From: Escherichia coli
GTDB taxonomy: Bacteria > Pseudomonadota > Gammaproteobacteria > Enterobacterales > Enterobacteriaceae
Length of the DNA stretch: 64,000 bases
Strand: one strand, 5' to 3'
Assembly: GCF_003334815.1 (NCBI RefSeq)
Contig: NZ_QOWO01000004.1
Positions within the stretch are counted from its first letter, which is position 1, and each line of letters begins with the position of its first letter. Made by a program: the position numbers. Positions 26,101-35,100 of the stretch are shown piece after piece.

Positions 26101-29100
26101 GCTGGAAGGCAGCAACTTCCGCAAGCCGACCAACCTGTTTGTTCATGGCTATGTGACGGTGAACGGCGCAAAGATGTCCAAGTCTCGCGGCACCTTTATT
26201 AAAGCCAGCACCTGGCTGAATCATTTTGACGCTGACAGCCTGCGTTACTACTACACTGCGAAACTCTCTTCGCGCATTGATGATATCGATCTCAACCTGG
26301 AGGATTTCGTTCAGCGTGTGAATGCCGATATCGTGAACAAAGTGGTTAACCTGGCCTCTCGTAATGCGGGCTTTATCAACAAGCGTTTTGACGGCGTGCT
26401 GGCAAGCGAACTGGCTGACCCGCAGTTGTACAAAACCTTCACTGATGCCGCTGAAGTGATTGGTGAAGCGTGGGAAAGCCGCGAATTTGGTAAAGCAGTG
26501 CGCGAAATCATGGCGCTGGCTGATCTGGCTAACCGCTATGTCGACGAGCAGGCTCCGTGGGTGGTGGCAAAACAGGAAGGCCGCGATGCCGACCTGCAGG
26601 CAATTTGCTCAATGGGCATAAACCTGTTCCGCGTGCTGATGACTTACCTGAAGCCGGTACTGCCGAAACTGACCGAGCGCGCAGAAGCATTCCTCAATAC
26701 AGAACTGACCTGGGATGGTATCCAGCAACCGCTGCTGGGCCACAAAGTGAATCCGTTCAAAGCGCTGTATAACCGCATCGATATGAAGCAGGTTGAAGCA
26801 CTGGTGGAAGCGTCTAAAGAAGAAGTGAAAGCAGCTGCCGCGCCAGTTACTGGCCCACTGGCAGATGATCCGATTCAGGAAACCATCACCTTTGACGACT
26901 TCGCAAAAGTTGACCTGCGCGTGGCGCTGATCGAAAACGCAGAGTTTGTTGAAGGTTCTGACAAACTGCTGCGCCTGACACTGGATCTCGGCGGTGAAAA
27001 ACGCAATGTCTTCTCCGGTATTCGTTCTGCCTACCCGGATCCGCAGGCACTGATCGGGCGTCACACCATTATGGTGGCCAACCTGGCACCGCGTAAAATG
27101 CGCTTTGGTATCTCCGAAGGCATGGTAATGGCTGCTGGTCCTGGCGGGAAAGATATCTTCCTGTTAAGCCCGGATGCTGGTGCTAAACCAGGCCATCAGG
27201 TGAAATAATCCCCCTTCAAGGCGCTGCATCGACAGCGCCTTTTCTTTATAAATTCCTAAAGTTGTTTTCTTGCGATTTTGTCTCTCTCTAACCCGCATAA
27301 ATACTGGTAGCATCTGCATTCAACTGGATAAAATTACAGGGATGCAGAATGAGACACTTTATCTATCAGGACGAAAAATCACATAAATTCTGGGCAGTTG
27401 AGCAACAGGGAAACGAGTTGCATATCAGTTGGGGAAAAGTTGGCACCAAAGGGCAAAGCCAGATAAAAAGTTTTTCAGATGCTGCGGCAGCGGCAAAAGC
27501 GGAGCTTAAGCTGATTGCGGAGAAGGTGAAGAAGGGGTATGTGGAGCAAGCGAAGGATAATTCTTTGCAACCTTCCCAAACGGTAACGGGCTCTCTCAAG
27601 GTAGCGGACTTATCCACCATTATTCAGGAACAACCCTCTTTCGTAGCAGAAACCCGTGCGCCTGACAAAAATACAGATGCTGTTTTACCGTGGCTGGCGA
27701 AAGATATTGCTGTCGTTTTTCCGCCCGAAGTTGTACACACCACGTTAAGTCATCGCCGCTTTCCCGGAGTTCCTGTTCAGCAAGCAGACAAATTGACCCA
27801 ATTACGTCGCTTAGCCTGTAGTGTGTCGCAACGGGATAATAAAACAGCCACATTTGACTTCAGCGCCTGTTCTTTAGAATGGCAAAACACCGTCGCCCAG
27901 GCGATCAGTCGGATCGACGGCCTGAAAACAACACAGCTACCATCACCAGTAATGGCTGTACTCACGGCACTTGAAATGAAATGCACAAGATATAAAGTGC
28001 GTGAGGATGTTATGGATCAGATCGTCCAGGAAGGCGGTCTGGAATATGCTACTGATGTAATAATACACCTTCAACAGATTGATATTAAATGGGATTATGC
28101 GAATAATGTCATTATTATTCTGCCGTCTGGCATTGCACCTGACTACTTGGAGCAATATTCCAGATTTGAATTACGCCTACGTAAACATTTATCACTGGCG
28201 GAAGAGTCTCTCTGGCAAAAATGTGCACAAAAACTTATTGCCGCAATTCCACATATTCCAGAATGGCGGCAACCATTAATTGCTTTGTTATTACCCGAAA
28301 AACCAGAAATTGCACATGAAATTGCCCAGCGTCTACTGGGGCAAAAAAAATTACCCTCGCTTGAGTGGTTAAAAATAGTGGCGACTGATGAGCACATTCT
28401 TGCCTCATTAGAAAAATATCACGAGCCATATGCCATTTTTGATGATTACTATTGTGGTGCGATATGGTCAGCCACCGTATTACAGGAGCAAGGTGTTGCA
28501 GCCCTGCCCCGATTTGCTCCCTATGCCGCAAGTGACTACTGCGCCGATGTGTTGCGTCATATCAATCATCCGTTCGCATTAACACTGCTTATACGTGTAG
28601 CCGGGCATACTAAACGCTGTCACGATCGGATGACGAAAGCCATTGCTGCGTTCCCACATGCAGCAATGGCGGCACTGACGGAACTTCTTGGGCAAAAAGA
28701 AGAGAACAGTTGGCGCATTATGCTAATGACAATGCTTATCTCACAACCAGCACTGGCAGAACAGGTCATTCCCTGGCTCTCGACACCCGCAGTTGCCGTA
28801 CTGAAATCATGCCAGCAACAACTGACACAGCCCTCAAACCATGCCAGCGCCGATCTACTGCCAGCCGTAGTAGTCTCCCCTCCCTGGCTTTCGAAAAAGA
28901 AAAAATCGCCGATTCCGGTGCTGGATTTAGCGCCATTAGGCATTGAGCCAATCTGTTATCTGACAGAAGAAATCAGTAATCAACTTTTGGCGAAATATAT
29001 CTGGTATTCAAAACACATCACGGTTAGCCATGAAGAAAGTACTACCAACCTGTTGGCAAGGATGGGTTTTCAACGACGGATCGCTGGTACATATATTAAA

Positions 29101-32100: not shown

Positions 32101-35100
32101 GATAAAAACAAACCCAGCCTGCAACGTGTGGCTAAATACAGTAAAAACTTCCCCCACGCGACGCTCGCCGCACTGGCAGAACTGCTGGCGTTAAAAGAAC
32201 CACCAGCCCGCCCAGGTTATCCAATCATCGAAGACAAAAAGCTGCCTGCACAGCAAAAAGCACGCGATGAATACTGGCGTACGCTGTTACAAACGCTGAT
32301 GGCATCGCAGCCACAACTGGCAGCAGAAGTGATGCCGTGGTTAAGTACTCAAGCCAGGGCAGTGCTGAATAGTTATTTATCGGCACCGCCAAAACCGGTT
32401 ATTGATAGCACCGATAACAGCAGTCTGCCTGAAATGCTCGTTTCACCACCGTGGCGTAGTAAGAAAAAAATGACAGCTCCACGTCTTGATTTGGCACCGC
32501 TCGAATTAACTCCGCAAATTTACTGGCAACCAGGCGAACAAGAGAGGCTTGCCGCCACTGAGTCTGCCCGTTATTTCAGCACGGAATCTCTTGCGGAACG
32601 CATGGAACAAAAAAGTGGACGAGTTGTATTACAGGAACTGGGTTTTGGGGATGATGTATGGCTGTTTCTGAATTATATACTCCCCGGAAAACTGGATGCT
32701 GCACGCAATTCACTCATTGTTCAGTGGCATTACTACCAGGGGCGGGTTGAAGAGATCCTGAATGGCTGGAACTCCCCGCAAGCACAATTAGCAGAACAGG
32801 CGCTCCGCAGCGGTCACATAGAAGCGTTAATTAACATATGGGAAAATGACAACTTCTCACGTTATCGTCCGGAAAAGAGTGTCTGGAACCTGTATTTATT
32901 GGCACAGTTGCCGCGTGAGATGGCTTTGACCTTCTGGCTGCGTATCATTGAGAAAAAGCATCTGTTCGCGGGTGAGGACTATTTTCTCAGTATCCTCGGA
33001 TTGGATGCGCTACCAGGTCTGCTGTTGGCTTTTTCACATCGTCCAAAAGAAACATTTCCGTTAATTTTAAATTTTGGCGCAACAGAACTGGCGCTGCCTG
33101 TTGCCCGCGTCTGGCGACGTTTCGCGGCGCAGCGTGATCTGGCTCGCCAGTGGATTTTACAATGGCCGGAACATACGGCTAGTGCACTTATCCCTCTTGT
33201 CTTTACCAAACCCAGCGATAATAGCGAAGCCGCATTACTTGCCCTGCGTTTACTGTACGAACAGGGACATGGCGAATTGCTACAAACCGTGGCAAACCGC
33301 TGGCAGCGTACAGATGTATGGTCTGCCCTGGAGCAGTTGCTTAAACAGGGTCCAATGGACATTTACCCGGCACGCATTCCAAAAGCCCCTGATTTCTGGC
33401 ATCCGCAAATGTGGTCCAGGCCGCGCCTTATCACTAATAATCAACCTGTTACCGATGACGCTCTGGAAATTATCGGCGAAATGCTGCGCTTTACCCAGGG
33501 GGGACGTTTTTATAGCGGGCTGGAACAACTGAAAACGTTCTGCCAGCCACAAACGCTGGCAGCTTTTGCCTGGGATCTCTTCACTGCGTGGCAACAAGCT
33601 GGTGCCCCCGTAAAAGACAACTGGGCATTTCTGGCGTTAAGTCTCTTTGGTGACGAAAGCACGGCACGGGATCTAACGACACAGATCCTCGGCTGGCCAC
33701 AAGAAGGCAAATCTGCCCGTGCTGTCAGTGGCCTGAACATCCTTACCCTGATGAATAATGATATGGCGCTGATACAGCTGCATCATATATCGCAACGGGC
33801 GAAATCCCGCCCCTTACGTGATAACGCGGCGGAATTTCTTCAGGTGGTCGCAGAAAATCGCGGGCTAAGCCAGGAAGAGCTAGCGGACAGATTAGTCCCA
33901 ACCCTGGGCCTTGATGATCCGCAGGCGTTGAGTTTTGATTTTGGTCCCCGGCAGTTTACCGTTCGCTTCGATGAAAACCTCAACCCGGTTATCTTTGATC
34001 AGCAAAACGTTCGCCAGAAAAGCGTTCCCCGGTTGCGCGCCGATGACGATCAACTGAAAGCGCCCGAGGCACTGGCCCGACTAAAAGGGCTAAAAAAAGA
34101 TGCCACTCAGGTGAGCAAAAACCTGCTCCCGCGTCTTGAAACGGCCCTACGTACCACCCGACGCTGGTCGCTGGCAGATTTTCATTCTCTGTTTGTTAAT
34201 CATCCCTTTACCCGTCTGGTTACCCAGCGATTAATATGGGGGGCTTATCCGGCAAATGAACCGCGTTGTTTACTCAACGCCTTTCGTGTGGCCGCAGAGG
34301 GGGAGTTCTGCAATGCGCAAGATGAGCCAATTGACCTGCCTGCGGACGCTCTGATTGGCATTGCCCACCCGTTAGAAATGACAGTAGAAATGCGCAGTGA
34401 ATTTGCACAGCTTTTTGCCGATTACGAAATTATGCCGCCTTTTCGCCAGTTGGCGCGGTGCACGGTGCTGCTCACACCTGACGAGTCAACCAGTAACAGC
34501 CTGACTCGCTGGGAAGGTAAATCCGCTACCGTTGGGCAGCTTATGGGAATGCGATACAAAGGCTGGGAGTCAGGCTATGAGGATGCATTTGTCTATGACC
34601 TGGGCGAGTACCGGCTGGTCCTTAAGTTTTCACCCGGTTTTAACCACTACAATGTTGATAGCAAAGCGCTAATGAGCTTCCGTTCTCTTCGAGTGTACCG
34701 TGACAATAAATCCGTCACTTTTGCCGAACTTGATGTGTTTGATTTGAGTGAGGCGTTAAGCGCACCTGACGTCATTTTCCATTAAAACACAGCGGGCAGT
34801 GATGCGACTGCCCGTTATCTACACGACTTACCAGCGGGGAAAGCGATGATCGTGCAAAAAGAGCTAGTTGCTATTTACGATTATGAGGTCCCTGTACCTG
34901 AAGATCCGTTTTCCTTCAGACTTGAGATCCATAAATGCTCTGAATTATTTACAGGTTCCGTCTATCGACTGGAGCGATTCCGGCTACATCCAACATTTCA
35001 TCAACGTGATCGAGAAGATGCTGACCCGCTAATAAATGATGCGTTGATTTATATAAGAGATGAGTGTATTGATGAGCGGAAATTACGAGGTGAATCACCT

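Follow-up and report, generated by a model that had tools for sequence, protein, structure and literature searches.

Intact molR of Escherichia coli, its paralogue yehI, and their possible role beside a MoxR AAA+/VWA gene module

Organization of the molR-yehI locus

The genes molR and yehI lie side by side downstream of metG in Escherichia coli. They have been analysed in a 64,000-nucleotide stretch of contig NZ_QOWO01000004.1 (RefSeq assembly GCF_003334815.1), which is referred to below as the window and in whose positions all coordinates are given. The gene molR, which corresponds to yehF and yehH of strain K-12, occupies 27349–31143 on the plus strand; it is intact and encodes, from an ATG start codon, a 1264-residue protein with a WGR domain, a helical solenoid, and a DUF4132 domain. 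The open reading frame (ORF) of yehI follows on the same strand after a gap of 9 base pairs (31153–34785) and encodes, also from an ATG, a 1210-residue paralogue of MolR that has no WGR domain. The first-pass annotation of the window had placed both ORFs exactly there. The two genes are presumably co-transcribed. That molR of the window is an intact and common E. coli allele, and a true paralogue of yehI, is virtually certain.

The evidence for paralogy is a single collinear BLASTP alignment of residues 110–1204 of MolR with residues 2–1163 of YehI, which contains 451 identities in 1187 positions (38%) and 53% positives, and scores 700 bits (E = 0 with compositional adjustment). The resemblance is not one of low-complexity sequence, because it forms one collinear alignment under compositional adjustment. 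The motifs that had been named as common to the two proteins (LRLRKHLSLAEES, IALLLPEKPEIA, DFGPRQFTV, RRWSL, RLIWG, LFADYE, and PPFRQL) are all located within this alignment. The start of YehI corresponds to residue ~110 of MolR, and YehI lacks the ~110-residue segment composed of the WGR module and a linker. The architecture of solenoid and DUF4132 domain is common to both proteins over ~1190 collinear residues, as is expected of a YehI-type protein; however, their identity is only 38–41%, and the WGR module is present in MolR only. The single-copy orthologues of Erwinia and Serratia are 44–54% identical to MolR but 33–37% identical to YehI, and the Erwinia protein matches MolR over its full length with 54% identity. 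Relative to these orthologues, YehI is the most divergent of three paralogues that occur in E. coli, the third of which is described below.

The WGR domain of MolR spans residues 6–69 (27364–27555, plus strand; Pfam PF05406, E = 4.9e-18) and matches the structure 2ra8 in the Protein Data Bank (PDB) with E = 1.4e-16. The Pfam scan thus agrees with the earlier assignment of a WGR module to MolR and not to YehI. A profile search started from MolR also reached the WGR domain of PARP3 (2eoc, E = 3.3e-4). The N-terminal 70 residues of MolR therefore match WGR domains of the type found in PARPs; by contrast, the catalytic PARP domain is absent. The DUF4132 domain (PF13569) of MolR is formed by residues 988–1173 (30310–30867, plus strand; E = 3.3e-50) and covers the full model from position 1 to 179. 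With WGR and DUF4132 domains in one uninterrupted full-length ORF without stops, MolR has all the characteristics of its family. In YehI, DUF4132 is the sole Pfam domain (E = 8.1e-46, residues ~954–1138, nucleotides 34012–34566).

A structural model of MolR contains a HEAT-like solenoid and an α/β domain, which is the C-terminal DUF4132. The solenoid, of the HEAT/ARM type, has been modelled for residues 640–950 (29266–30198, plus strand), and the helical region reaches N-terminally to residue ~110. No characterised structural relative of the α/β domain was found. A sequence search of the PDB with MolR returned only the WGR structure 2ra8; the profile search added the PARP3 WGR domain and alphaRep HEAT repeats. 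The NCBIfam scan of MolR gave only a sub-threshold match of the WGR region to a Leptospira fibronectin-binding model. No catalytic signature was found in MolR or YehI, and the invariant positions include no cysteine and only one histidine. The architecture of MolR and YehI is that of a non-enzymatic solenoid.

Intact and disrupted alleles of molR

The same 3.8 kilobases of K-12 MG1655 are annotated as yehF (b2115, 274 residues, "PF05406 family protein") followed by the pseudogene yehH (b4499), formerly molR_1, molR_2, and molR_3, at the same site between metG and yehI. The fragmentation of K-12 molR, which the first-pass annotation had mentioned, is thereby borne out: K-12 does not carry the intact ORF, and the similarity of MolR to YehI extends beyond low-complexity sequence. 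The two molR sequences are 99.3% identical at the DNA level and differ by 26 substitutions and one extra G. Two of the differences break the K-12 gene, and the window allele has neither of them. Codon 275 (28171–28173, plus strand) is TTA for leucine in the window and the stop codon TGA in K-12, where it forms the end of yehF. A run of two G nucleotides at 30193–30194 (plus strand) is extended to GGG in K-12, which creates a +1 frameshift at nucleotide 2846 of the gene and splits the yehH pseudogene.

The spread of these alleles was estimated among 5426 complete E. coli genomes from exact matches of 61-nucleotide words, the counts of which are only bounds on allele frequency. The K-12 word with the TGA codon (equivalent to window positions 28142–28202) is present in 706 genomes, which include human, poultry, and O145 isolates and are not confined to laboratory strains. 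The K-12 word with the frameshift is present in 352 genomes; among the matches listed, most are laboratory derivatives of K-12. The window's own word at codon 275 occurs in 1220 genomes. All 5426 genomes match some part of the 8.2 kilobases around molR and yehI, which have a core position beside metG, and strain 52F4 is 100% identical to the window over this region. In strain 52F4 the annotation of molR reads "DUF4132 domain-containing protein" (WP_061352722.1) and that of yehI "DUF4132 domain-containing protein YehI", with metG upstream and yehK and yehLMPQ downstream.

Full-length MolR is also abundant in protein databases. A protein search returned full-length E. coli clusters of 1264 or 1262 residues with 7215, 21,639, and 927 members, and many more, under names such as "WGR and DUF4132 domain-containing protein" or "MolR family transcriptional regulator". 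MolR of the window is 88–99% identical, along its entire length, to such 1262- and 1264-residue E. coli proteins, and at least 1000 contigs carry a near-identical cluster member of 1264 residues. The exact sequences of MolR and YehI from the window are present in NCBI and UniRef, and the RefSeq entry "WGR and DUF4132 domain-containing protein" WP_061352722.1 is the same protein, without any difference. Intact molR is thus the usual state in E. coli and is already annotated, the K-12 pseudogene is documented, and there is nothing new in the locus itself. Therefore, the idea that the locus offers an intact template for the ancestral gene holds only in part: the gene is intact, but the locus is not a special template, because intact molR is common in E. 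coli and already in RefSeq and UniRef. For the study of molR, K-12 is an unsuitable strain, and ~13% of complete genomes are exactly like K-12 in the sequence that surrounds the premature stop.

Other disruptions have been observed in this region. In strains of the O157:H7 type, the third paralogue g1 has an internal stop, and the MolR orthologue g2 is split into a 426-residue WGR protein and a partial DUF4132 fragment; one such strain, TT12A, also has an internal stop in yehM. In strain SWHEFF_58, yehL is frameshifted (locus coordinates 14053–14976), and IS421 is inserted in the locus of other E. coli strains. The resistance transposon TnMB1860 sits in this "DUF4132 region" in an ST131 sublineage (PMC9334617). 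A screen in K-12 found slower growth when the deletion of molR_1 (the WGR-only fragment, b2115) was combined with that of lepA (PMC4245954). The truncated 274-residue product, or the locus itself, may retain some effect in K-12.

A third paralogue and the history of the allele

Some E. coli strains have three tandem paralogues in the order metG-g1-g2-yehI. The g1 product, a 1265-residue WGR and DUF4132 protein, is 47% identical to MolR; the orthologue of MolR is g2, with 76–92% identity. A g1-specific probe detected ~1623 of the 5426 E. coli genomes (~30%). Where all three genes are present, the promoter region and its SOS box precede g1. The 5′ end of molR in the window was compared (27349–27520) with the SWHEFF_58 locus at 1850–2150 and 5660–5970. 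The first 135 nucleotides match g1 at 12 of 15 informative sites, and the sequence is g2-like from nucleotide ~168 on, with an apparent crossover between g1 and g2 near nucleotides 135–168, inside the WGR-coding region. Because the 5′ end is of the g1 type, the promoter is that in front of g1, and the remainder is of the g2 type, the comparison suggests that the two-gene state of the window and of K-12 arose by deletion or conversion between the conserved WGR-coding 5′ ends, and that molR is a chimera of two WGR paralogues. For the same reason, namely its g1-type first ~135 nucleotides and g2-type remainder, the allele is probably not strictly ancestral.

Alleles of MolR differ strongly over part of their length. 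The identity of residues ~100–750 is 31–78% per 100 residues, with a rate of synonymous substitution (dS) above 1, and the C-terminal third is more than 90% identical. The ratio of nonsynonymous to synonymous rates (dN/dS) between intact alleles of molR, yehI, and g1 is 0.18–0.27. Positive selection on the divergent N-terminal part was considered but is not demonstrable, as dS is saturated there too and dN/dS is ~0.25. The substitution pattern indicates purifying selection on old divergent haplotypes or imported segments.

DUF4132 genes and the yehLMPQ module across bacteria

Downstream of yehI, the window contains yehK (34846–35163), which encodes a small protein of 105 residues, and four genes annotated in RefSeq: the MoxR AAA+ gene yehL (36403–37491), the DUF5682 gene yehM (37502–39781; Pfam E = 6.9e-96), the VWA gene yehP (39774–40910), and the SWIM gene yehQ (40907–42904), the product of which has weak Pfam SWIM matches. 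All five are on the plus strand. In NCBIfam, YehL and YehP weakly match GvpN, MadB, and cobaltochelatase models. No functional study emerged from literature searches for DUF5682, for the combination of WGR, MoxR, SWIM, and vWA, or for the names of the yeh genes.

The DUF4132 family comprises 2567 clusters at 50% identity that score below 1e-30, and its conserved core corresponds to residues ~650–1195. A scan of species-representative genomes yielded 70 loci outside E. coli, from Gamma-, Beta-, and Alphaproteobacteria, Myxococcota, Actinobacteria, Planctomycetota, and others. Synteny was counted by tblastn with the window proteins in the 65 loci of at least 12 kilobases. At least one homologue of YehL, YehM, YehP, or YehQ lies beside the DUF4132 gene or genes in 49 of the 65 loci, which is the adjacency expected of an accessory subunit of a YehL-type MoxR AAA+/VWA module, and all four are present in 39. 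The partner homologues are mostly directly downstream of the DUF4132 gene and on the same strand. Tandem copies of the DUF4132 gene are frequent, and their number reaches at least five per locus in Massilia. Across phyla, DUF4132 genes are a copy-number-variable partner directly upstream of the MoxR AAA+/DUF5682/VWA/SWIM operon. No homologue of yehK was found in the 70 loci examined outside E. coli. No member of the family occurs in 50,697 phage records, and 27 of 72,556 plasmid records contain one, mostly megaplasmids or mislabelled chromosomes.

Seven Massilia loci contain arrays of three to at least five tandem WGR and DUF4132 genes, with several arrays per genome; in some of the arrays the last gene is followed by yehLMPQ homologues, whereas in others no such homologues appear within the 20 kilobases examined. 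In the window, the spacer between yehK and yehL (35200–36320) is ~1240 base pairs long, compared with 307 base pairs in K-12. It contains a tandem duplication of ~608 base pairs, the copies of which are 93% identical (35221–35520 and 35829–36128). Each repeat carries a 29-residue hydrophobic ORF on the minus strand, at 35273–35362 (MDTLTQKLTVLIAVLELLVALLRLIDLLK) and 35881–35970, and, on the plus strand, an OrzO-P antitoxin RNA recognized by Rfam, at 35608–35681 (88.8 bits) and 36216–36291 (99.9 bits). We take the repeats to be the zorO-orzO/zorP-orzP type I toxin-antitoxin pair. At a greater distance, the yehABCDE fimbrial region upstream of mrp/apbC (21000–23500) has a G+C content of 0.37–0.42, compared with ~0.51 in the neighbouring genes.

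The molR promoter and SOS control

An intrinsic terminator of metG, a hairpin with a 9-base-pair stem that includes six GC pairs and is followed by a run of T nucleotides, precedes molR at 27218–27241 (plus strand). A pattern search identified the LexA box-like site CTGGATAAAATTACAG at 27324–27339 (plus strand), which overlaps the ribosome-binding site and ends 10 nucleotides upstream of the molR ATG. The window allele thus has a putative LexA box upstream of the gene, as do members of the LexA regulon. The 140 base pairs upstream of molR, including the SOS box, are identical to those of K-12. In K-12, molR has been catalogued as a LexA-controlled gene whose SOS box is known (PMC6590174, PMC11039860), and direct activation of its promoter by BglJ-RcsB has been reported (PMC3950696). 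MolR is one of the few classic members of the LexA regulon without a known function, and it is part of the conserved DUF4132-MoxR-DUF5682-VWA-SWIM set of many phyla.

Possible functions of MolR and YehI

The name of MolR implies a transcription factor that regulates molybdate metabolism, which is very improbable. The historical name and the annotation carried by some sources are in its favour, and a link between molybdenum and MoxR proteins is conceivable, as CoxD-type MoxR ATPases assemble Mo-Cu centres. WGR has also been cited as a DNA-binding domain of "MolR-like TFs" by the Aravind group (PMC7824862). However, Pfam detects no helix-turn-helix or other transcription factor domain (the HTH_WhiA match in YehI has E = 10), and a 1264-residue solenoid architecture is unlike that of bacterial regulators. 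Moreover, the original genetics were done in a K-12 background, in which molR is already a pseudogene, and K-12 uses molybdate normally. No mod, moa, or moe genes are found beside molR in E. coli or in the 70 other loci; what is conserved next to it is yehLMPQ. The radiation-desiccation regulon of Deinococcus includes DUF4132 and WGR genes, which respond to DNA damage, whereas molybdenum genes are unchanged (PMC8533742). The label of a molybdate or transcriptional regulator has no support in the sequence. A related proposal would keep the metal and drop the regulation: by analogy with CobN-CobS-CobT and BchH-BchI-BchD, the ~1250-residue MolR and YehI would hold a substrate into which the AAA+ protein YehL and the VWA protein YehP insert a metal or cofactor. 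Such a chelatase-like machine would have the same three-part logic and subunit sizes as these systems, and would accommodate the weak match of the YehP VWA region to a putative cobaltochelatase model (E = 3.5e-4), the resemblance of YehL to other MoxR/GvpN ATPases, and the historical molybdate phenotype. It is nevertheless improbable: Pfam, PDB profile, and fold searches reveal no similarity of MolR or YehI to CobN or BchH, the invariant positions offer no cysteine and a single histidine, and WGR and SWIM domains suggest nucleic acids or proteins rather than tetrapyrroles or metals.

Two further explanations start from the variability of the locus. DUF4132 proteins could be the diversifying sensors of a system in conflict with phages or mobile elements, with YehLMPQ as its engine. 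Such a role would fit the copy number, which is two or three in E. coli and up to at least five in Massilia, the extreme divergence of the solenoid alleles beside a C-terminus that is more than 90% identical, recurrent pseudogenisation, SOS control (PMC6590174), and the toxin-antitoxin cassettes inserted in the locus. It is unlikely, however, as PADLOC-DB 2.0 contains no match for MolR, YehI, YehK, YehL, YehM, YehP, or YehQ, and no effector domain, such as a nuclease or toxin, was detected. The absence of the family from phage records, its rarity on plasmids, its fixed core position beside metG in all 5426 E. coli genomes, and an overall dN/dS of ~0.2 with no sign of positive selection also speak against it. 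Alternatively, molR and yehI could be dispensable remnants that drift towards loss in E. coli, and the intact state would then have no functional meaning. The independent disruptions in K-12, in O157:H7, by IS421, and by TnMB1860 in ST131 (PMC9334617), together with the frameshifted yehL and the interrupted yehM, are what decay would produce; but the dN/dS of 0.18–0.27 between intact alleles is that of ongoing purifying selection, full-length forms dominate the protein clusters, and the operon architecture is conserved across phyla, so that decay has little to commend it.

The explanation that we favour, by a modest degree of confidence, combines a common intact molR allele with a role of MolR and YehI as adaptors or clients. 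The mechanism is put forward tentatively: MolR and YehI may be non-enzymatic adaptor or client subunits of the YehL ATPase/YehP VWA pair. They would be alternative subunits engaged or remodelled by YehL and YehP, and the WGR domain would give MolR, unlike YehI, the ability to recognize nucleic acids, in particular DNA ends. In E. coli, both DNA damage, acting through LexA, and BglJ-RcsB would activate the molR-yehI-yehK unit.

Several observations weigh against this explanation. Gene order is the only link between MolR/YehI and YehLMPQ, and in E. coli yehK and the two zor-orz cassettes lie between yehI and yehL; because of these intervening elements, molR-yehI and yehLMPQ need not be co-expressed. 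DNA binding by the WGR domain of MolR is assumed by analogy with its family. The repeated disruption of MolR in nature, by the K-12-type TGA haplotype in 706 genomes, in O157:H7, by IS421, and by TnMB1860, implies that its role is dispensable under many conditions. Within the window, a relaxed LexA pattern is not above chance (two matches compared with 2.4 expected), and the strict consensus CTGT-N8-ACAG has no match. The case for SOS control is therefore built on the identity of the promoter to that of K-12 and on the literature. A LexA-like box was not seen upstream of the orthologues of Erwinia and Serratia, nor of those of Iodobacter and Chitinibacter.

The adaptor or client role can be extended to a more specific, and rather unlikely, proposal. 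MolR, YehI, and YehLMPQ could form a widely distributed machine in which one or more interchangeable DUF4132 solenoids, some of them with a PARP-like WGR sensor of DNA ends, guide an engine of MoxR AAA+, VWA, and SWIM proteins to DNA-protein complexes that are damaged or foreign. If this were true, E. coli would have put the sensor genes under SOS control, and the multiplication of the solenoids and their deep allelic divergence would represent diversified target specificity.

Comparison with characterised MoxR AAA+/VWA systems

The adaptor or client relation is modelled on the workings of characterised MoxR-VWA systems. We know of no client of the YehL subfamily of MoxR. The characterised pairs include RavA-ViaA, CbbQ-CbbO, NorQ-NorD, and CoxD-CoxE; YehL and YehP are a pair of this kind, adjoined by DUF4132 genes. 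By contrast with these systems, which have no counterparts to them, the yeh set includes DUF5682 and SWIM subunits together with multiplied DUF4132 genes.

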